Below, in pieces: positions 19,966 to 30,628 of a stretch of DNA of 64,000 nucleotides (positions are counted from its first letter, which is position 1; each line of letters begins with the position of its first letter). The notes under the pieces are model-generated. The model was not told where the DNA came from and ran no database searches. It saw only the letters and a list, made by a program, of their open reading frames with translations. The stretch is from Candidatus Falkowbacteria bacterium. Lineage in GTDB: Bacteria; Patescibacteriota; Patescibacteriia; UBA11705; JABHMO01. A program made the position numbers and the translations under genes. The DNA is taken from contig JABHAL010000010.1 of assembly GCA_018674305.1 (NCBI GenBank), forward strand, positions 25,708 to 89,707, read 5' to 3'.

Positions 19966-20075
19966 AAGTAAAACTAGCAAGAAGAGCAAGACAAGTAAAA
20001 CAAGTAAAACAAGTAAAACTAACAAGACAGTAACTTGTCTCGTTGGTCTCGCTTGTCTAGCTAGTCTTGCTAGTT
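19966..20075. repeat. Inverted degenerate 9-mer tandem repeats
   Basis: (ACAAGTAAA)n followed by complementary (CTTGTCTCG/CTAGTCTTG)n. Confidence 0.75.
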
Positions 20076-20175
20076 CAATTCTACACTATTTTACTATTTA
20101 TTTCAACCTTAAACTTGACAATTTTCAAAAACTATAATATACTACTACATTGCACTAAAAACAAGGAGGTGTGCA

Positions 20176-20442
20176 ATGTGGTTCTTGATTGTTTTCCTAC
20201 TTTCAATTAGTCCTCGGTTGATCATGTTCATCCTGTTCGTGGCAACGGACTACTTGGGCAGTGCCTTTGACAGTGTCTTTTGGCCAATCGTAGGTTTTCT
20301 TTTCATGCCCTGGACCACACTGTGGTGCGCTTACGTATGGAACAATGGCGAATTCGGCACATGGCGAATCATTGTTCTGGTACTCTGCGTATTAGCTGAT
20401 CTTGGTGGCGGCAAAACCGTAACCTCGGGCAGCTCTAGCTAA
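20176..20442 (+). CDS. Small membrane protein (orphan cassette)
   Basis: Hydrophobic 88 aa with GFLFMPWTTL; TTGACA-17-TATACT at 20115-20143; SD AAGGAGGT; terminator ~20449-20482. Confidence 0.8.
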   Translation: MWFLIVFLLSISPRLIMFILFVATDYLGSAFDSVFWPIVGFLFMPWTTLWCAYVWNNGEFGTWRIIVLVLCVLADLGGGKTVTSGSSS

Positions 20443-20521
20443 ATTAACAAAAAAGACTCATGCTTCACTTGCATGGGTCTTTTACTTTTAAAATATAGTA
20501 TTAAGGAATATAACAATTTAC

Positions 20522-23278
20522 CTAAATTTCCTTGCCCTTCTCAACTCGAAGAGTATTTCCAACTTCAAGGATAACTTTATCGCGTCGACCAACTTCGCCA
20601 GCTAAAATCTTTTTAGCCAATGAATCATCAATCTTTTCTTGAATTGCTCTACGCAGTGGTCGCGCGCCAAACTTCGGATCAAAACCTGCTTCAGCCAATT
20701 CAGCAATAGCTGCTTCAGTAGCAGTAAATTCAATGCCCTTTTCTTTTAATCTTTTAGTTATTTTATTCACCATCAACTTAGCAATCTGAATAACATCCAT
20801 CATTGATAGCGGTTTAAACACAACAACACCATCAAACCGATTTAGAAACTCTGGTCGATAATGTTCTTTTAATTTTTCATTGATTAAGACTTCTTTAATC
20901 TCTTCAACCGATGTGCCTTTATTTATTTCATCCTGAATATATTGAGCCCCTGCATTAGAGGTCATTATTATAATTGTATTAGTAAAGTCAATTGTACGCC
21001 CCTGAGCATCAGTCAATCTTCCATCATCCAAAACTTGCAAAAACAAATTTAAAACATCTGGATGTGCTTTTTCAACTTCATCAAACAAAAGTAAGGCAAA
21101 CGGATTTTTGCGAACTGCCTCAGTTAAAATACCAGTGTTAGAACCAGAACCTATTAAACGATCAATACTGGACCGCTCCTGATACTCAGACATGTCAGTA
21201 CGAATCATAGCATTTTCATTACTAAAATAAACCTCGGCAACGGTTTTGGCTAACTCGGTTTTACCCACACCAGTTGGACCAAGAAACAACATACTGGCAA
21301 TTGGGCGCTTTCCTTCCCGAAGCTCAGCTCTCGCGCGCCGCAAACTGGTAGCGACAATATTTACCGCCTCTACCTGATCGATCATGCGTTCATGAATTCT
21401 ATCCTCCAGATTTAATAATTTTTCACTTTCTTTTTGAGTAACTTGGGTTAATGGAATGCTGGTTAAATTTGAAATAACCGCTGCTACATCCTCACCACCC
21501 ACAACCTTATTTTCCCCTCGTTCTTTTTTTACCTTTATAGCAGACTGTTCTAGTATTTCAATTGCCTTTTCAGGTAAATAACGATCATGAATGTACCTAG
21601 AAGATAAAATTGCAGCTTTCTCAATCGCAGAATAGGAAAAATAAACATGGTTCTGATATTCCATTGGTCCACTTTTGGCTTCCAAAACTTGAATAGCATC
21701 ATTAAGTTCAAGTTCTTCAACTTTTACCGTCTGAAAGGCTGAATCCAAGCTCTTGTTTTCAACTGCTCCAAGATAACCATCTCCAGTAGTAGTGGCTACT
21801 ACATGAAACAAATGCTTAGAAAGTAATTGAGCGAATACTTCAGACAAATCTAAACTCTGTTCACCGCCAGCTGTAATGCCATGTAAATTATGCAAATTCT
21901 CCACTGCTAAAACGATATTTCTGGCTCTCATTGCCTCATTGATAATCAACATCAAGCGCTGTTCCGCTGCAGCCGCATCAGCACCAGCCAGTAAACTTGA
22001 AATATTTAAACTAACTAAACGTTTATCTTGCAAAATTTCGGGTACATCCTCAGCTACCATTTTTTGGGCCAATCCTTGCAAAATTGTAGTTCGCCCAACA
22101 CCTTGATTTCCAACCAACAATACGCCTTGTCGACTACCCTCAATAATACGAAACATTTGCTCAAACTCTTTTTCACGACCAATACAAGGGAAAAACTGTC
22201 CGTATTTAGCCTGTAAAGTTAAATCTTCACTAAATCTATCTAACATTGGTGTAGCGATCGCAGTCATGGCCCTATCCATACCTGACTTAGGTTTATAACG
22301 AGCTTTGCCTTGATATCTTTGCCAATTTTTTCTTAACTGATCCTGAATACGAACCCAGGCTACTACATTCTTCACTTGTTGATAATTCAATCCAAAATCA
22401 ATTAACAATTCTTCGACATCATCCTTTTCCACCTCGGTTTTTTCTGGTGAAGCTAAAGCCAACACAATTTCCGCTAAATCAACTTTTGGCCAATGTCCTT
22501 CATACGCTTCTAAATAAGCAACAATAAGCAAACGATGCATTTCCTCAGACAAAATCGGATTACCCGGTCTTGCAATAATATGTTTAGATAAATATCTACT
22601 TATTTTCTTTTTTAATTTATCAAATGAAACTCCCAATCGTCCCAAAATAATCGCCGACTTGTTGAACTGGAACAAAACACCCAATAAATGAACGCGCAAT
22701 ATTTCATGATGTTCAAAGTGCCCAGCCAATTCCCAACTCGCCTGAAGAGCTTTCTTGGATTCAACTGTAAAAGACTTGGAAATATCAACCAACTTACTCT
22801 TTTTTAATTTCCAGACTTCTTGCCAATCCAAAGAAGGATTAGGAAATTCACTCTTTTTATGAAAATGTTTAGCTAACACATTATATTTAGCTGAACTTTC
22901 CTGATCTAATCGATAATATAAATATAGATCTACTAATAAAGTCAACCAAAAATACATTTTTTCAAAACTTGGAGTTGACCAATATTTCAAAGTAAAAAAT
23001 GAACTAAAGTTATCAAGATAACCAATATAAGCCATAACTATAAATCCAGAAATACCAAAAAGCGCTAATACAGCATTAATAATCAAACGTACTTTGCGAA
23101 TTCCTTTTTCGTAAGCATTATTTACAGGATCATAAAACTGTCCCCAATATAAAACTTTGTCTTCAAGAAAATAGACTACGCCAAGCCCACGACAGGTATT
23201 ACATAACAGCCCATCAGTATATCCGGCTCCATCGCACTCTTGGCAAACTAAAAAATTGTTATCTAATTTCTCACTCAT
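20522..23278 (-). CDS. Membrane-anchored Clp/Hsp100 AAA+ ATPase
   Basis: N-terminal CxxCxGxG...CxxCxG, two TM helices, NBD1 (GNQGVGRT), NBD2 (GPTGVGKT, LFDEVEKAH, RPEFLNR, GARPLRR). Confidence 0.9.
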   Translation of the reverse strand: MSEKLDNNFLVCQECDGAGYTDGLLCNTCRGLGVVYFLEDKVLYWGQFYDPVNNAYEKGIRKVRLIINAVLALFGISGFIVMAYIGYLDNFSSFFTLKYWSTPSFEKMYFWLTLLVDLYLYYRLDQESSAKYNVLAKHFHKKSEFPNPSLDWQEVWKLKKSKLVDISKSFTVESKKALQASWELAGHFEHHEILRVHLLGVLFQFNKSAIILGRLGVSFDKLKKKISRYLSKHIIARPGNPILSEEMHRLLIVAYLEAYEGHWPKVDLAEIVLALASPEKTEVEKDDVEELLIDFGLNYQQVKNVVAWVRIQDQLRKNWQRYQGKARYKPKSGMDRAMTAIATPMLDRFSEDLTLQAKYGQFFPCIGREKEFEQMFRIIEGSRQGVLLVGNQGVGRTTILQGLAQKMVAEDVPEILQDKRLVSLNISSLLAGADAAAAEQRLMLIINEAMRARNIVLAVENLHNLHGITAGGEQSLDLSEVFAQLLSKHLFHVVATTTGDGYLGAVENKSLDSAFQTVKVEELELNDAIQVLEAKSGPMEYQNHVYFSYSAIEKAAILSSRYIHDRYLPEKAIEILEQSAIKVKKERGENKVVGGEDVAAVISNLTSIPLTQVTQKESEKLLNLEDRIHERMIDQVEAVNIVATSLRRARAELREGKRPIASMLFLGPTGVGKTELAKTVAEVYFSNENAMIRTDMSEYQERSSIDRLIGSGSNTGILTEAVRKNPFALLLFDEVEKAHPDVLNLFLQVLDDGRLTDAQGRTIDFTNTIIIMTSNAGAQYIQDEINKGTSVEEIKEVLINEKLKEHYRPEFLNRFDGVVVFKPLSMMDVIQIAKLMVNKITKRLKEKGIEFTATEAAIAELAEAGFDPKFGARPLRRAIQEKIDDSLAKKILAGEVGRRDKVILEVGNTLRVEKGKEI

Positions 23279-23691
23279 ATAAGTTTTCCAAACACATTAA
23301 GGTTGTACAAAATCATGATAACTAAAAAAATTGGCAAGACCAGCCAAAATATAAAAATAATTAAACTAAATATTAACCAGAATATTAGAGCAAAAGTTCT
23401 AAATATTATATTGAACAAACGCATGAAAAAACTAATGATTCTGCTCTGCCAATCATGTTGCCCAAACATAGGCACGAAAATATTTTTCAGCCAAAGTGTT
23501 ACACCTAATTCAGAGTTACCCTGAGAAATAAAACCCGTCATGCGTTTAAAGGCCTTAATCAGGCCAGCTGAATACCACCAGATAGGCCAATACAAAAAAT
23601 CTAAAACTATATCCTTTACAATAAATTTAAAAGATTTGAGTAAAATGTTTTCCTTCACCATACTTTTTATTTTTGATCTTTGTTTACTCAA
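23275..23691 (-). CDS. Conserved membrane protein overlapping the Clp ATPase start
   Basis: YWPIWWY, KNIFVPMFGQ.DWQSRIISFFMR; 4-bp overlap with the ATPase gene. Confidence 0.75.
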   Translation of the reverse strand: MSKQRSKIKSMVKENILLKSFKFIVKDIVLDFLYWPIWWYSAGLIKAFKRMTGFISQGNSELGVTLWLKNIFVPMFGQHDWQSRIISFFMRLFNIIFRTFALIFWLIFSLIIFIFWLVLPIFLVIMILYNLNVFGKLI

Positions 23692-23921
23692 ATATTATAC
23701 CATAAACTGCAATTAACACACAATAAGTAATGCACACACCCTCATATAAACTATTACTAAAGCTCAATCATCCCACCCTCCCTCCCCACTGGAGGCGCCT
23801 GCGGCGGGCCTGGTTCGTCGTCACTATGTTGTTCCTCCTCACCTTTTTCTTCACAGTAATCTAAAGTCTTGTGATCTTGTACACATTGGCCATTAGGCCA
23901 ACAGATCTGTATATCATGTAA

Positions 23922-23960
23922 CAAAAAAAGAGGACTAATTCGCATTGCGAATTAGTCCCT
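23922..23960 (-). terminator. Intrinsic terminator of the large RNA
   Basis: 12-bp stem GGACTAATTCGC/GCGAATTAGTCC followed on the minus strand by TCTTTTTTT. Confidence 0.85.
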
Positions 23961-25113
23961 TTACCATCGTTGAACATTGACTTGTGGGCCAACATCCTCG
24001 TACATTAAAGTTTGATTTTACCATTACAGTTTGTCTTTGAGACACGGTTTGTTCATTTGTGAAGTGCTAGTTTTGAAGCTTGGCTTAACCAATTCTTGAT
24101 TTTTGTTTTGTTCTGACCGAGGTCAGTTTCCAACTATTACAAGTTTGGCGACTTACCGTCCCGAAGGATGGCTAAAGATAGTTTATCACTCTATGATTGC
24201 TCATTGAGTTTCCGCTATCAAGTCTTACTTTTGCTTTTTCTTCTAGTTCTTCTGAACATTCCTTGTGTTCTGTTGTCTTGTCAACACTAGGCTGACATCG
24301 CGTGAAGGTTAATTGTCTGACCGAAGTCAGTGAGGAACATTTCGCTAGCCGAAGCTTTTGATTTGTTCTTACTTTTAACTTTCCAGAATACTTTGCTCTT
24401 TGGACATTAGCTGTTTCGTTTACTTGCTGGATTTTTGTTTTCTTCCTTTCGGAGGATCACTTTGTCCACTGGGGTAAACTACTAGTTCGTTTTCTCTGTC
24501 GTTCTGTAGTCTTGCTAAAGCAGTTTTACCAAGGAGTTTTTCGTTTTTACACAAAATACTTCTTGATTTTTTTGCTTTGATGCAAGTTGCTTGCGTTGAA
24601 GATTGGCTCTTGATCTAGTCTTGGCTAGCTTTTTTCTTCTGTTACCGAAGTAACGTCAGAATCCGGTTAACTTTGATTTTGATCCGTCATAGCTTATCTT
24701 CTGCATGCCCACTGATCGATTTTGATTGCGAATTAGCGACGTTTAACTTACTTGCCTCGAAAGGTTTTCTGTCTTTGTCTACTGCTAATTTACTGTTTAG
24801 CTCCATTTATAATAGTAGTCGTTGGTTTTTCCGAAGAAAATCCTGACTGCTAAATAGAGGCCAAATCTGTCATTGCCTTTTCTGAGTGGGTTGGTTACCA
24901 CTACAGTAAAAGCTCGAGATCTGTGGTGCATGTTAGTGTCAAGGCGCTTTTCACGGCTGTGCCCTTAAGTCAGTTGTCCAAGTTAATTTGGAGTATTGCT
25001 ACTCTTTGGTTAACTTTTTCTCCTGTCTCAGGACTCCACCTCAGAACTTGCATTCTTTGGTTTCCCTTGTCTTTACTTGCTCAATTACTTGTAATGAACT
25101 TTGTTGATGGTAA
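23922..25113 (-). ncRNA. Candidate giant (~1.19 kb) structured non-coding RNA
   Basis: No minus-strand ORF >=60 aa within it; consensus promoter, terminator, complementary ends, seven UNCG-type and several GNRA hairpins. Confidence 0.75.
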
Positions 25114-25118
25114 TTCAC

Positions 25119-25146
25119 ATTATACTCGTATATCAAAACCTGTCAA
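25119..25146 (-). promoter_or_regulatory. Consensus sigma70 promoter of the large RNA
   Basis: TTGACA-16nt-TATAAT; perfect DnaA box TTATCCACA just upstream at 25156-25164. Confidence 0.8.
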
Positions 25147-25304
25147 GTGCCTAACTGTGGATAACTTTTAACTCTATTTTTTGTTTAATTTTAGAGGAAA
25201 ACTTTACCCCATTGACAAAATTATATATTATTGTTAATCTTTTATATCTGCTATAAATTTATAATAGCAAGTGTTTATTAACAATTGACCACTAGAAGGA
25301 GGGA

Positions 25305-25997
25305 ATGATGGAAGCTACGCTAATTGGTGTTTTTGTTTTAAGTGTACTTATCTTCTTGTATTGGACATGGACACTTATGTTTGTACGGAACATAGACACT
25401 GAAGCCTTTATGGCCCAGATTCAAAAACTGATCATGGCCAACAACCTTGACCGAGCAATTAAACTTTGTAATGCTGCCCCAAATGCAGTCATGACTCAGC
25501 TGACTAAAAGCGTTTTGATTTGCGCTAATCAACCACACAGATTATATCTAGCCTATCTACAGACGACTTTCAAGCTGAATCACGAGGCGAAAAACCTAAA
25601 AAAATCTCCAACCCGAATCACAATTATTATTCTCATTTATGGGCTACTAGTAATGGGTTTCGTTGTGCAACCTCTAGGCTGGACGTTGGGTGCGGTTCTA
25701 GGCATCATTGCTTTTGTTTTGCTATCGCTGACCTCTGCGTTCATTTCCGCTCGTCTTGTCAAAACCAAAAAGGACAAGTTATACCTATTCAGGCTGATGG
25801 ACCTCTTGCAATATCGAATGGCTAATTACAACACGGATGAATCCAACGAAGGCCTAACTTTTATGCAAGCCAGGCCACTAACTGAAGACGAACTAGCCAG
25901 GCGCATGTCAACTGGGGCGCCTCCCCCGAAGGTTAGACCTTCGCCAGTGGACGAACTCAAATCAAAATTGCAATCCGAACTATTACCCAAGCTTTAG
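25305..25997 (+). CDS. Membrane protein with MotA/TolQ/ExbB-like N-terminal segment
   Basis: TM then FMAQIQKLIMANNLDRAIKLCNAAP; TTGACA-17-TAATCT at 25212-25240; SD AAGGAGG. Confidence 0.65.
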   Translation: MMEATLIGVFVLSVLIFLYWTWTLMFVRNIDTEAFMAQIQKLIMANNLDRAIKLCNAAPNAVMTQLTKSVLICANQPHRLYLAYLQTTFKLNHEAKNLKKSPTRITIIILIYGLLVMGFVVQPLGWTLGAVLGIIAFVLLSLTSAFISARLVKTKKDKLYLFRLMDLLQYRMANYNTDESNEGLTFMQARPLTEDELARRMSTGAPPPKVRPSPVDELKSKLQSELLPKL

Positions 25998-26009
25998 GGA
26001 GGACGAATA

Positions 26010-26708
26010 ATGCTATTTGTGATTGGTATAATACTCTGTGTATTTGCAGGTTTAACGATCCTTGGTTCCATAATCGAAATAATGAAAGAAAGTATCGCTA
26101 TTACTGCCTTCATGCATCAGGTAAAAAAGCTGGTTCTGAGCAATAATATTGATCGAGCAATTAAGTTGTGTAACTGCGCGCCCCATTCAACGTTAGCCGT
26201 TGCAGCTAAAAAGCTGTTAACTAGAGCTAACAAGAACAGTGCGCTGTACCAAACATTTTTACAAGCCAAAATGGAACTTGAGATAGAAAGTTGGTCAAAC
26301 AAGTCTGCTACCAAATGGGCTTTGTGGAACCTAACACTTGCAATTGGATTTTTCACTGCTGGCTCTATGTACAACATGTTATTCGAGGGAGCGCTTTTGT
26401 GCGGTATTGCCTATACCAGTTTCTCACTAGCACAGTTTGTGTCCTCATTCAGACACAAACTGCTTTGCAAAGAGATTCCAGCCCTAGAGGACTTACTCCA
26501 AACACTAATGGAGCGCTTAGGGGTAACTGCCCCTGACTTTGCTCTATTAGATAATCCATCTCAGGAACTGCTAGCTAAACAAGAAAAGCTAATGGAAGCC
26601 TTTGAGCGGAGTTACACCAAAGACAAAGATGCTGGTCGAGAAACTCGACCGGTAGAAGCTGTTTTCCTCGAGAAGATAGATCTACGAACCGGTCTTTTCC
26701 CTGCTTAG
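26010..26708 (+). CDS. Paralogous MotA/TolQ/ExbB-like membrane protein
   Basis: FMHQVKKLVLSNNIDRAIKLCNCAP...LLTRAN; SD GGAGG; terminator 26715-26748. Confidence 0.65.
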   Translation: MLFVIGIILCVFAGLTILGSIIEIMKESIAITAFMHQVKKLVLSNNIDRAIKLCNCAPHSTLAVAAKKLLTRANKNSALYQTFLQAKMELEIESWSNKSATKWALWNLTLAIGFFTAGSMYNMLFEGALLCGIAYTSFSLAQFVSSFRHKLLCKEIPALEDLLQTLMERLGVTAPDFALLDNPSQELLAKQEKLMEAFERSYTKDKDAGRETRPVEAVFLEKIDLRTGLFPA

Positions 26709-26770
26709 ACAACCAAAAAGTCGATTGTTCACAACAATCGACTTTTTTATTATTCAATACTAAATGTCTA

Positions 26771-27385
26771 CTAAAGGTATTCTTTTAATACTTCTAAAAA
26801 ATTATCAAAATCAATTGCCCTATTTTTAAAATCTAAATCGTCATAATTAATAATAATCACTTGCGCCAACTTGAAATTGCCAGCCCAGTTGTCATACAGA
26901 TCATTTAAATCTTTAATATATTTACGGTCAATGGTTTTCTCAAAATCCCGCCCGCGCTTTTCAATTCTCTGCATTATTCTATCCACAGAAGCTCGCAGAT
27001 AAATAACCAAGTCAGGTGCGGGTAAAATTTTCGTGCAAACTTTATAGATCTGACGATACGATTTCCAGTCTCGTTTGGAAATATGTTTTCTATTATATAA
27101 ATGCCGGGCAAACACTTCTGCATTTTCATAAATACTACGATCTTGAATTACTGAATGTTTATCCACAGTTAAATCATAATGATCCTGCAATCTCTTGCCC
27201 AAGAAAAACATTTGCGAATGGTATGCCCACTTTTTCATGTCTTTGTAAAAATCTTCCAGGTACGGATTTTCGGTTACCGGTTCTATATATGGCTTCAACT
27301 TAAAATGACCAGCTAACTTTTTAGTTAGAGTTGATTTTCCAATTCCAATGTTGCCTGAGATGGCGATGAATTTCTTATTCTTCAT
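26771..27385 (-). CDS. Deoxynucleoside kinase
   Basis: ISGNIGIGKST, NPYLEDFY, QDRSIYE, RIEKRGR. Confidence 0.92.
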   Translation of the reverse strand: MKNKKFIAISGNIGIGKSTLTKKLAGHFKLKPYIEPVTENPYLEDFYKDMKKWAYHSQMFFLGKRLQDHYDLTVDKHSVIQDRSIYENAEVFARHLYNRKHISKRDWKSYRQIYKVCTKILPAPDLVIYLRASVDRIMQRIEKRGRDFEKTIDRKYIKDLNDLYDNWAGNFKLAQVIIINYDDLDFKNRAIDFDNFLEVLKEYL

Positions 27386-27426
27386 ACAGATTACAGATTT
27401 GTACGGGTGTACGGATTAATTAGGAT

Positions 27427-27801
27427 TTAATTAATATTAACTACTCTTCTAAATTTTACTCCTTCAGGTGAAAACAAGATTAACAAACCAACCTCTAATT
27501 TCAATAGTTTTAAGTATTCATTTATTTGATCAAAGTCTTTTCTAATAAATCTTTTACCCACTTTCAACTCAATCAATATTAAATCAAAAAATAATATATC
27601 CAAACGACTATTACCAATTTTTTCACCTTTATATTTAACTGGCAAATTAATTTGAGAACTTACTGGAATATTTTTACTTTCAGAATCCTTTATTATTGCT
27701 CTTTCATAATATTTTTCTCTGTATCCAGATCCTAATTCATTATAAACATCAAACATTATTCCAATTATAATTTCTGTTTTGTCTTTATGAAGGAGTTCCA
27801 T
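27427..27801 (-). CDS. GxxExxY protein (PD-(D/E)xK-like)
   Basis: VYNELGSGYREKYYE, RLDIL, IELK, Q..EYL; flanked by inverted TACGGAT/ATCCGTAC repeats. Confidence 0.85.
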   Translation of the reverse strand: MELLHKDKTEIIIGIMFDVYNELGSGYREKYYERAIIKDSESKNIPVSSQINLPVKYKGEKIGNSRLDILFFDLILIELKVGKRFIRKDFDQINEYLKLLKLEVGLLILFSPEGVKFRRVVNIN

Positions 27802-27972
27802 ATATGTCTATTCTATCAAATTTTTCAAGATCCGTACATCCCAACTACCGCGAACAGGCGCACAAATCCGTTAACTGTTTTTGTGAATCCGTACATCCGT
27901 ACAAATCTAAAATCCGTACCTATATAAAAAAACAGAGCCTGGTTAGAGAACCAAGGCTCTGTTGTGTTATTA

Positions 27973-28515
27973 CTATTTATCTTCGATAACACGTACCATT
28001 GCCGGCGGAGTGGCCAGCTGAAGTGGCTGATCGCACAGCATGTACGTCCCGCTCCACTCTAGGTAAACATCATCCGTAGTAAAGAAGAAAACCGCGTCAC
28101 CATTGGTTCCGTACGAACCATCGAGCTGCGGGCTTTCCACAACCTTACCACCAACACGTCTACGTGCAAAAGGATCATCGACAATCTGTTCACCAGTAGT
28201 TAACTTGGAGTTAACACTGGAGACCTTACCCTTGATAGTATGAAAGGCCATCACCTTACCATAGCTAACCAGGTAAATGTAGCTGATCTTGTTCGGATCA
28301 TTGAAACGGTTAAGCCGCTTTGACAGGTTATCTCGCTCCAAAGAACTCTCGATCTTGGGCGGCGGCGTGGCCTTGATCAGACGACCCTGCTGCTCTTCCG
28401 TGAAATTGGCCTCTGCCTTCTGGGTCTCACCCTGGCCCTCGTAGGACTCATCATCACAACCAACAAAGGCAGTGAACGCGAAAACACACGCAATTGCCAG
28501 CATAATTTTCTTCAT
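27973..28515 (-). CDS. Lipoprotein, paralog A
   Basis: Lipobox FVGC; SYIYL, KGKVSS, ESPQLDGSYG, VFFFT; SD GAGGAGG. Confidence 0.8.
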   Translation of the reverse strand: MKKIMLAIACVFAFTAFVGCDDESYEGQGETQKAEANFTEEQQGRLIKATPPPKIESSLERDNLSKRLNRFNDPNKISYIYLVSYGKVMAFHTIKGKVSSVNSKLTTGEQIVDDPFARRRVGGKVVESPQLDGSYGTNGDAVFFFTTDDVYLEWSGTYMLCDQPLQLATPPAMVRVIEDK

Positions 28516-29102
28516 TTCGACACCTCCTCGTCGCTCGTATCAGTCTTGGGATTATCCTCAATAATGCGAACCATCTCCGGAGGAGTAGACAGCTGAAGTG
28601 GTTGGTCGCTCAGCATGTATGCACCGTTCCACTCCAAGTAAATATCGTCCGTGGTGAAGAAGAAAACCGCATCGCCATTAGTTCCATATGAACCATCGAG
28701 CTGCGGGCTTTCTACTACCTTACCAGACCTGCCCTCATGATGAGCAAAAGGATCCTTCACGATCTGCTCACCAGTAGTCAACTTTGAATTAACACTAGAA
28801 ACCTTTCCCTTGATTGCATGAAAGGCCATGACCTTACCAAAATCGACCAAGTAGATATAACTGATCTTGTTGGGATCATTGAAACGAACAAGACGCTTGG
28901 CCAAATTCTCACGCTCCAAAGAGCTCTCGATCTTGGGCGGTGGGGTGGACTTGATCAGACGACCCTGCTGCGCTTCCGTGATCTTAGCTTCTTCCTTCTG
29001 GGTCTCACCCTGGCCCTCATAAGTTTGCTTTTCCGTCTTGCAGCCAACAAAGGCAAACGCCAGAATCAAGCTAAACAAAACCAACGTCTTTCCAGTCCTC
29101 AT
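28512..29102 (-). CDS. Lipoprotein, paralog B
   Basis: Lipobox FVGC; highly similar to paralog A; SD AGGAGG; TTGACA-17-TATTAT at 29187-29159. Confidence 0.8.
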   Translation of the reverse strand: MRTGKTLVLFSLILAFAFVGCKTEKQTYEGQGETQKEEAKITEAQQGRLIKSTPPPKIESSLERENLAKRLVRFNDPNKISYIYLVDFGKVMAFHAIKGKVSSVNSKLTTGEQIVKDPFAHHEGRSGKVVESPQLDGSYGTNGDAVFFFTTDDIYLEWNGAYMLSDQPLQLSTPPEMVRIIEDNPKTDTSDEEVSK

Positions 29103-29227
29103 CGCAACCTCCTCAAGGTTATTAAGATGAATACACTAACAGATAGTGTAAACATCCTATAATATCACATATGAAATACTTTGTCAATAGCGACTGTAAT
29201 TTTACCACAAAGTCGCCCCTTTGAGAT

Positions 29228-29290
29228 AAAAAAACAGAGCCTGGTTAGAGAACCAAGGCTCTGTCGTGTTATTACTACTTGTCTTCGATC
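29228..29290. repeat. Duplicated gene end plus terminator (second copy 27926-27988)
   Basis: AAAAAACAGAGCCTGGTTAGAGAACCAAGGCTCTGT.GTGTTATTACTA occurs twice; both upstream genes end IEDK-TAG-TAA-TAA. Confidence 0.85.
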
Positions 29291-29817
29291 ATCCGGACCA
29301 TGGCCGGTGGCGTAGACAGTTGCAGTGGCTCAGTAAGCCACATGTAATCACCTCGCCACTGGACCAATACTTCTTCTGTAGTCCAGAAGAAGATCGCGTC
29401 TTCACTCGGACCATAGGATCCGTCCAATCCAGGACTTTCCATCGTATGTCGAGTTCGTCCAGCGCCAGTTGATCCATCGCCGACCTCGACAACCTGATCA
29501 CGCGTAGTCAACTTAGACGAACAATAAGTAACCTTGCCCTTCACCGTATGAAAGGCCATCACCTTGCCATAACTGATCAAGTAAATATAAGAGATTCGAT
29601 CTTCACGATTGATCTCCTTGAGATACTTCACCAGATTCTCCCGCTCTAGAGAATTTTTCATCTCCGGCGGAGGAGTCGACTTGAGTAACCGTTCCTGGTT
29701 CCTCTCTGTCATTTCCATCTCATCGATGGTAGTCTGGCCAGTATCCAGCGCCTTACCGCAACTGATCATACCCATAGCCAGAACACAGAGAGTAACAATC
29801 GTCATAAGCTTCTTCAT
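29275..29817 (-). CDS. Lipoprotein, paralog C
   Basis: Lipobox ISC; same SYIYL/KGKV/DGSYG motifs; SD AGGAG. Confidence 0.8.
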   Translation of the reverse strand: MKKLMTIVTLCVLAMGMISCGKALDTGQTTIDEMEMTERNQERLLKSTPPPEMKNSLERENLVKYLKEINREDRISYIYLISYGKVMAFHTVKGKVTYCSSKLTTRDQVVEVGDGSTGAGRTRHTMESPGLDGSYGPSEDAIFFWTTEEVLVQWRGDYMWLTEPLQLSTPPAMVRMIEDK

Positions 29818-29826
29818 GTCAATCTC

Positions 29827-30342
29827 CTACTGGCCGGGGATAGTGAAATCTGCCGGATGCGTCGCCGGAAGATCATCAGTTTTGAACAGCTCACGGTTGG
29901 CCATTTCAGTTCGCGCATTGTACTTGGCCACCACGTCTCGCCGTTGATTCTGCAGACCCAGCACGATCGTGTTGAGTCGAGAATACTCGGTCTTGTCCTC
30001 GAACGTCCAATCCTTGCGCGGACCAGCGTCTTCCTTGAAGCGCTTGAGCGCCGCGTCAGAATTGACGATCTTGGACTCCAGCGACAGGATATCCTGATTC
30101 GTCTGCTTGAACCACTCGTAGTTCTGGATCACGTTGTCCGCGTCCAGAGTCTTCTCCATGATCTTCACAGCCTGCTCGCCGGGATAACACACCACCCGGA
30201 CAACCGTCCCGATGAGTCCCAACACAATCACAACTGCGAGGATCTTGAAGAACATACTCCAAGGTCCACCTTTGGCCAGGTTGTAGGCCGTGTTTTCGTA
30301 CTTTCGCCCAACATCATCCCATCGATCATCATTCCGTGTCAT
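29827..30342 (-). CDS. Single-TM coiled-coil partner protein
   Basis: TM then ADNVIQNYEWF...VAKYNA; SD AAGGAGGT before MTRN; TTGACA-17-TATACT at 30432-30404. Confidence 0.75.
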   Translation of the reverse strand: MTRNDDRWDDVGRKYENTAYNLAKGGPWSMFFKILAVVIVLGLIGTVVRVVCYPGEQAVKIMEKTLDADNVIQNYEWFKQTNQDILSLESKIVNSDAALKRFKEDAGPRKDWTFEDKTEYSRLNTIVLGLQNQRRDVVAKYNARTEMANRELFKTDDLPATHPADFTIPGQ

Positions 30343-30628
30343 CTCCACCTCCTTAAGGTTTAGACACAAAAATACTTCTATTCAGCAACACAGTTTTCAT
30401 AAGAGTATAGCATAAAGATTAAATACTGTCAACCCTATTACCTAAATTTACAACAGAAATACTATTTGAAACAAAAAACAGGCAAATAACGCCTGCTTAA
30501 TAACAAAGAAACAATTAACCAAATCCTAAATAAACACAAAATATCAATGCTTAAAATATAAAAATAACTTTTGAATTTAAATATTATAATTTGTTTAGAA
30601 TTTAGAGTTTGATTCATTGATCAATTTG

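Follow-up and report, generated by a model that had tools for sequence, protein, structure and literature searches.

A large structured RNA gene, probably of an undescribed family, behind a putative DnaA box in Candidatus Falkowbacteria

In a 64,000-nucleotide stretch of Candidatus Falkowbacteria DNA (hereafter the window; its genome, G000, measures 1.28 Mb, and phylum-level relatives range from 0.4 to 2.1 Mb), about 1.2 kb of the minus strand appeared to lack a credible ORF, and an earlier note on this DNA had proposed a giant structured non-coding RNA with its own promoter and terminator. This raises the question of whether the locus indeed constitutes an RNA gene, whether that RNA belongs to a described class, and what it might do. 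The analysis below argues that the locus is a genuine gene for a structured RNA whose family is undescribed, a reading to which we assign a probability of about 0.9.

Promoter, boundaries and coding potential of the RNA gene

Inspection of the minus strand confirmed the proposed frame at every coordinate given. The promoter, a boxA-like segment GTTCATTACAA (25099-25089) and a long stem at 24800-24860 all read as the note had given them, and the predicted 5′ end proved complementary to a segment just before the terminator. The terminator and its U-tract are present as well, with 13 pairs rather than the 12 first counted. A further feature, absent from the note, lies upstream of the promoter.

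25156..25164, minus strand: TTATCCACA, which we take to be a DnaA box, 9 nt upstream of the -35 hexamer
25119..25146, minus strand: sigma-70 promoter TTGACA-16-TATAAT, 12 of 12 consensus positions; homologs have a promoter at the same position
23922..25113, minus strand: RNA gene, about 1192 nt including the terminator, its start predicted from promoter and closing stem
25106..25113, minus strand: 5′ strand of the closing stem (P1), TTACCATC, complementary to GATGGTAA
23961..23968, minus strand: 3′ strand of P1, GATGGTAA, from a best-partner scan
23922..23959, minus strand: intrinsic terminator, 13 pairs plus U-tract

The RNA is thereby confirmed as a stand-alone unit consisting of DnaA box, sigma-70 promoter, 5′/3′ closing stem and terminator. 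It is present as a single copy in G000, and its strand (25113-23922) contains 39.5% A and 21% U. The RNA strand has no ORF of at least 60 aa, and none of the 30 stop-free six-frame segments of the gene gave a tblastn match in nine homologs, on which grounds a coding reading was rejected. A perfect promoter is not rare in this genome, which has 62 perfect TTGACA-N16-18-TATAAT sites, and only 4 of its 35 DnaA boxes like TTATCCACA precede a TTGAC. The sole other AAGTTATCCACAG-TTGAC promoter in the genome (L117, C8:63184-63208, minus strand) is followed by a palindrome overlapping its spacer and then by a protein gene.

RNA-library contigs coincide with the predicted unit

The stretch is contained in 19 runs, six of which are RNA libraries. 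In the latter, 0.57-0.68 of the query words were present, with the element making up 0.74 of the query. Contigs of three of the six RNA runs and of one DNA run were placed on 20000-29000.

23964..25099, strand not assigned: overall span of the perfectly matching, mismatch-free RNA-library contigs

These contigs cover 23964-25091 in X14, 24029-25099 in X15, and 23969-24202 plus 24260-25099 in X16. They thus stop 14-22 nt short of the predicted 5′ end, and those of two runs reach to within 8 nt of the 3′ closing strand. The contig of the DNA run extends past the gene both ways (23776-25834). Since X14 comes from the study of a possible source run, and a single campaign may have produced both X15 and X16, this amounts to about two independent sources. 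The flanking genes yielded almost no RNA contigs of the organism's own; among those listed in X15 were only two 151-nt pieces at a depth of 4, versus 670 on the RNA, a difference that provides no expression ranking because the runs were chosen for containing the stretch and consist of contigs, which show neither strand, true ends nor level. The RNA-library contigs therefore agree with the predicted unit and support its transcription, while the high expression ascribed to it earlier is only hinted at by such preselected runs and by contigs instead of reads.

Homologs occupy one chromosomal slot

The gene is flanked by housekeeping synteny, of which the first two elements below served as anchors.

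26771..27385, minus strand: deoxynucleoside kinase (PF01712, E 1e-51), upstream anchor
23275..23691, minus strand: small membrane protein of no known family, downstream anchor
20522-23278: ClpB/ClpA-like ATPase, after the small membrane gene

Between kinase and RNA promoter, G000 encodes a pair of paralogous membrane proteins, each about 230 aa long and without a Pfam family (25305-26708, plus strand), perhaps ExbB/MotA-like; their genes lie on the strand opposite to the RNA and were not seen at the corresponding site of the relatives examined. A variable islet separates UvrD from the kinase; it comprises three paralogous lipoprotein-like genes (180-196 aa) and a fourth gene (27973-30369, minus strand), without a Pfam or NCBIfam family, and G002 has a similar pair.

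Because blastn with the element found it in only 1 of 40 relatives, the remaining homologs were obtained via synteny and promoter patterns. The survey was anchored on the downstream membrane gene, found in 25 of the 26 genomes of the order, and made 15 genomes of the family scorable (G014 was left unscored). In 10 of these 15, the interval from kinase to anchor contains a large structured RNA, and the kinase stands directly upstream of the RNA in the nine large members other than G000.

RNA lengths, terminators included: G010 369, G011 598, G007 656, G015 670 and G013 795 nt
RNA lengths, terminators included: G012 1001, G006 1042, G004 1138, G000 1192 and G002 1273 nt

The size of about 1.19 kb originally proposed thus holds for the G000 copy, but does not define the family, whose members span 369-1273 nt. 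A DnaA box precedes the promoter exactly in 9 of the 10 large members and as a reverse-oriented consensus in the tenth (G011). At the three empty sites (G001, G003 and G009), no DnaA box was found in the 1.5 kb before the anchor gene; in G001 and G003 the kinase is followed at once by the small membrane gene, and G003 represents a clear loss. The sister genomes G005 and G008 have no kinase at the slot and instead hold promoter- and terminator-bounded closed-stem units with C-rich loops, which are candidates for a minimal form, a divergent 6S RNA or unrelated sRNAs, homology being unproven.

L160:530-730, minus strand: short closed-stem unit of G005, 201 nt
L161:745-913, minus strand: short closed-stem unit of G008, 169 nt

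In G015 (L156), the region from RNA terminator to membrane gene contains a second short stretch that ends in a near-copy of the RNA terminator and carries a GCGAAAAG-TTCGC hairpin like the 5′ end of the RNA, perhaps a duplicated fragment or a second RNA.

Sequence or profile matches link G000, G002, G004, G006, G007, G012, G013 and the metagenome contig L064 (88% identical to G004), whereas G010, G011 and G015 gave no profile match and rest on slot, promoter frame and root shape. Contigs L072 and L073 also carry homologs. Over 736 nt, the RNAs of G002 and G004 show 68% identity, whereas the G000 copy has only short blocks in common with them. On the protein tree, carriers occur throughout the family clade (support 95/94), in which G003 is sister to G000 (100/99) and G002 is closer to G000 than G004 is (97/93). 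This spread, together with the loss in G003, suggests that the gene was probably ancestral to this one family of Patescibacteria and lost at least once. As G002 is the closer kin of G000 but its RNA resembles that of G004, the G000 copy would have been remodelled quickly.

Outside the family, ten loci from other families showed no such RNA frame within 1.5 kb upstream, a distance at which an RNA can be missed where a gene intervenes, as in G004. Searches with the pattern of DnaA box, promoter and boxA led to G007, from another genus, with its 656-nt RNA. Class-level scans matched 2 of 401 and 8 of 401 genomes, among which only G007 was new, and the phylum-level scan matched 1 of 401, not a family member. 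Two of 6 metagenome matches and two of 24 genome-contig matches were real. Scans of viral contigs gave 0, 41, 11, 2 and 19 matches, none homologous on inspection, and two queries found no match among INPHARED phages. Absence outside the family is weak evidence, since the models can miss the window's own copy: the 5′ model R2 does not find it, R1 misses it in a genome-wide search, and R3 reaches only E 0.026 and misses it in another search. The two outside-family matches of R3 were rejected as boxA-like leaders of protein genes. In G080 (L118:1501 onward, minus strand) and G278 (L119:1501 onward, plus strand), a DnaA box, promoter and boxA-like leader are followed by 200-300 nt of structured sequence that has no Rfam match at gathering score and is unrelated to the family by R1.

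The RNA fold is under selection

Local folding was stronger on the minus strand (z -6.7) than on the plus strand (z -3.4; 15 shuffles), and the RNA has six GNRA/UUCG hairpins with at least 4 pairs, whereas 200 shuffles gave 0.83 on average and never more than 4. The ten tetraloop hairpins listed by the earlier note were all found in place, although several short ones are marginal alone and the one at 24755-24764 does not fold by itself. Among seven newly found family members, folding z ranged from -3.9 to -11.4 (G007, -9.2); G002, outside these seven, reached only -2.8.

For a non-circular test, the structure of one sequence was scored on another through an alignment based on sequence only. 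This revealed compensatory changes in 30 of 237 pairs versus 14.8 +/- 3.2 under the null, a count reached by 0 of 2000 shuffles; 77 of the 237 pairs were broken, partly from misalignment. A second such comparison yielded 27 of 165 pairs (13.3 expected), and that of L064 with G004 yielded 12 of 232 (1.2 expected), neither ever reached in 2000 shuffles. RNAalifold moreover found two-sided change in 47 of 224 pairs. These data show that the RNA fold is under selection, and they provide the covarying homologs against which the earlier proposal could be held.

A conserved root, 5′ domain and junction carry variable arms

The following parts of the molecule could be delineated by comparison between members.

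25087..25099, minus strand: boxA-like segment (7 of 10 members), which also forms the 5′ strand of root helix P2
24000..24011, minus strand: proposed 3′ strand of P2, from comparison between members, weak in G000
23972..23997, minus strand: P3, a 3′ hairpin with A/C-rich loop that completes the root three-way junction
24918..24979, minus strand: conserved 5′ domain, a UGAAA-type-loop hairpin plus flanking helix, from similarity to G004 and a profile match
24965..25030, minus strand: arm module of helices split by A-rich internal loops with a GCAA cap, second match of model R1 (E 0.002)
24137..24233, minus strand: conserved inner three-way junction (CUAUCUUUAG, UUCG hairpin), model R1

At the root, a scan of the entire molecule placed the best partner of the 5′ end at the 3′ end in 8 of 10 members, the sequences differing between them. 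The resulting P1 has 6-10 pairs and is followed by an A-rich linker of about 5 nt. For P2, the root provides the best partner site in only 4 of 10 members and a near-tied one in 2, and the single-sequence fold of G000 does not form this helix. Cognate P1/P2 strands outperformed non-cognate ones (0 of 20000 permutations). As each fold had itself determined where the 3′ windows were set, this test is circular in part, and the best-site scan was relied on instead.

The 5′ domain is 86% identical to that of G004 over 36 nt, was matched by a profile at E 4.8e-6 (with 0 matches in the reversed-sequence control), and occurs with a UGAAA/CUAAA-type loop in seven sequence-linked genomes. The covariance model R1, built without G000, matches the inner junction at E 1.5e-5 with all core pairs kept, and the junction also appears in G007 (R1, E 0.0026). 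In total, the profiles gave four matches in the G000 copy and none in reversed controls; as all four are colinear, the idea of module reshuffling between G000 and G004, which had come from three common 9-mers, found no support in them.

Conservation is confined to this root, the 5′ domain and the one junction. The body arms consist of short helices (median of about 4 pairs) with A-rich internal loops and mostly GCAA or UUCG caps, and UUCG to GCAA swaps were seen between G004 and L064. Such mostly interchangeable GNRA/UUCG caps fit stability rather than specific pairing. No loop-loop or loop-linker complementarity of at least 5 nt (with at least 2 G-C) was predicted in any of 11 single-sequence folds, the aligned sequences being too few for covariation-based pseudoknot detection. 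Arms are duplicated internally in G002, G006 and G012, and direct repeats within the G000 copy are short. Longer members are richer in A, its fraction going from 0.22-0.25 up to 0.37-0.40 (Spearman 0.90 over 10 members that, as kin, are not independent), and in the long forms about 60% of unpaired positions are A.

The boxA-like segment shares its core with CATTACAA, near the start of the 16S leader of G000, and the core also precedes protein genes in other genomes, with NusB present in 5 of 5 genomes. This indicates a general leader signal rather than a mark of the family.

Possible roles of the RNA

What such an RNA does can be approached from its frame and its architecture. Our overall reading, held at somewhat less than even odds, is that of a DnaA-controlled, length-extensible RNA in which a conserved root bears a variable number of duplicated A-rich arms, serving either as a modular scaffold or as an adenine store tied to the replication cycle. 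Of the individual roles considered here we favour, more tentatively, that of a flexible scaffold or titrator, in which a protein partner would dock on the root and the 5′ domain. Judging from the motifs, DnaA bound just upstream of the -35 would tie RNA synthesis to the replication state, and the boxA-like segment would recruit NusB/NusE and let polymerase read through the hairpins. The closing stem may in turn hide both RNA ends from nucleases, and the arms could supply either stable interchangeable bulk or repeated A-rich binding surfaces, by analogy with the arms of yeast telomerase RNA. No partner protein tracking with the RNA was found among CsrA, Hfq and Ffh (0 of 5 genomes each) and TROVE (1 of 5). 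Furthermore, the weak P2 of G000, a G000 copy that is barely alignable to that of its closer relative G002, and the miss by R2 count against a scaffold, and the loss in sister genome G003 indicates that the role is dispensable.

A store of purine (adenine), i.e. an end-protected polymer made while a host feeds the organism and degraded to provide nucleotides for replication, in which nothing but stability and bulk would count, would agree with a length that varies 3.4-fold, with the climb of A content with length and the A-rich unpaired positions of long forms, with the DnaA box and with the adjoining deoxynucleoside kinase, a salvage enzyme. CPR bacteria are, to our knowledge, without de novo nucleotide synthesis. 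However, such a store needs neither a conserved 5′ domain nor an inner junction, the short members are not A-rich, rRNA constitutes a larger reserve, and we know of no precedent for an RNA purine store, which makes this explanation unlikely.

We also consider it improbable that the RNA forms an RNA-only oligomer or nanocage through A-minor and tetraloop-receptor contacts, as GOLLD and ROOL do. The likeness lies in comparable sizes, in an abundance of GNRA loops and in A-rich junctions, and in being a large, multi-junction, stand-alone ncRNA of unknown function with conserved and variable regions. GOLLD and ROOL are reported to be prophage- and tRNA-associated cages that use kissing loops, pseudoknots and A-minor bridges, GOLLD often exceeding 800 nt with a conserved and a variable half, and ROOL being abundant yet non-essential (PMC12286853). 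The family RNA, in contrast, is chromosomal, vertically inherited and confined to one slot rather than to prophages near tRNA islands (the 64-kb window holds no tRNA, and no phage copy was found), it has a DnaA box, and its growth from 369 to 1273 nt by arm duplication is a poor fit to a fixed cage, as is the absence of predicted kissing loops in all 11 folds. GOLLD (RF02032) did not exceed its cut-off in any of 5 genomes, and none was found at the locus at E 10. The family RNA could nevertheless oligomerise through tetraloop contacts.

That the RNA is a 6S-like molecule of much enlarged size, binding sigma-70 polymerase and represented in minimal form by the closed-stem units of G005 (201 nt) and G008 (169 nt), appears decidedly unlikely. 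Some 6S RNAs resemble a closing stem with 3′ hairpin, as found at the root here, and canonical 6S was not met elsewhere in these genomes: RF00013 matched 0 of the 26 genomes of the order, in a search whose control matched 5 of 14 known genomes, so that a divergent 6S can be missed. However, RF00013 did not match even the short elements, three family genomes have an empty site, and the body of the family RNA is branched and up to seven times longer. Moreover, no long closing stem with a central bubble was found; a 6S promoter mimic needs a longer stem than the 6-10 pairs and linker of about 5 nt of P1.

Could the RNA instead be near-neutral or selfish, being folded only since unfolded transcripts of a strong promoter would do harm? 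The gene was lost from one lineage at least, and probably from three; this, the fast arm turnover and the lack of a partner among the proteins above would fit, but promoter, DnaA box and root have been retained across 7 genera of small genomes, deletion of the promoter would be cheaper, and neither a mobility gene nor a second copy was found, rendering this highly doubtful. Finally, an effect of the DNA itself or of its being transcribed (DnaA titration or origin-linked transcription), with the RNA being secondary, is hardly credible in spite of the conserved DnaA box and the position of the gene on the G-rich strand, given that there is a single box and no cluster, that C6 shows no skew switch here, and that the compensatory changes show selection on the RNA fold. 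A replication origin was rejected on the same single box and unswitched skew.

A DnaA-controlled RNA with extensible arms would be of wider interest in that organisms with genomes of about 1 Mb keep it and a DnaA box is tied to every large member. The family offers a natural deletion series (369, 598, 656, 670, 795 and 1001-1273 nt) as well as natural knock-outs, which makes core-versus-arm function and cage versus scaffold directly testable by in vitro transcription. If the reading is true, the long forms of 1.0-1.27 kb would be among the largest bacterial ncRNAs outside rRNA and introns, and the series from 369 to 1273 nt would directly show the growth of such RNAs.

Comparison with known RNA classes

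The covariance models of Rfam 15 (including ROOL, OLE, raiA and HEARO) gave only chance-level matches at the G000 locus and for G002, G004, L064, G005, G006, G007, G010-G013 and G015, leaving the claim of novelty unrefuted. Together with the covarying homologs, this lack of an Rfam match supports the earlier suggestion of a possibly undescribed large RNA class. We found no description of this RNA in the literature, of which the motif catalogues in supplements could hold it.

Signatures of rRNA, tmRNA, RNase P RNA and group II introns were indeed lacking, as initially observed. G000 has its own 16S, tmRNA and RNase P RNA elsewhere, and no Rfam intron model matched. A tmRNA was rejected given that ARAGORN finds none at the locus and a normal one at C4:5877-6266, and RNase P RNA was rejected given the genome's copy at C16:313401-313778, which itself scores 85.9 bits, below the Rfam cut-off. 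The 16S gene is solitary in that a 23S gene does not directly follow it. Likewise rejected were an SRP RNA (no Ffh, PF02978, in five genomes; no Rfam match), a CsrB/RsmZ sponge (0 GGA loops in the G000 RNA; no CsrA in five genomes), an Hfq-dependent sRNA (no Hfq in five genomes), a retron, DRT or group II intron (no RT in the 12 neighbouring proteins scanned; no intron match) and an antisense sRNA (no genome-wide antisense target better than E 0.077). A bacterial Y RNA was rejected as TROVE is absent from G000 and G002 and occurs only in G012 (1 of 5 genomes); the TROVE/Ro60-like protein of G012 (C33:8862-9608, minus strand) has an open frame of 603 aa.

Partial likenesses were found with several other systems. 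tmRNA resembles the family RNA in topology only (closing stem, linker, long helix with large insert, 3′ hairpin), and the latter has no T-loop, 3′ CCA or tag ORF. With rRNA operon leaders the RNA shares a boxA-like segment soon after the start, its core being that of the G000 16S leader, and the presence of NusB; unlike in such leaders, no rRNA or tRNA follows, the segment also serves as one strand of a helix, and 3 of the 10 members lack it. OLE is likewise a chromosomal large structured RNA with a closing stem; it is about 600 nt long, highly conserved in sequence and has dedicated partner proteins, whereas the family RNA diverges fast and has no Rfam match. We consider the RNA new at the level of the RNA class, since it matches no family or mechanism, although it shares with GOLLD, ROOL and OLE the loose label of a large structured RNA without a known function. 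Time and again, such large RNAs of bacteria have proved to harbour new biochemistry. The architecture of the family RNA is also reminiscent of the yeast telomerase RNA TLC1, in which long, fast-evolving, imperfect helical arms are mounted on a small core over about 1.2 kb. Homology is not claimed, and neither a reverse transcriptase nor a template was seen for the family RNA.
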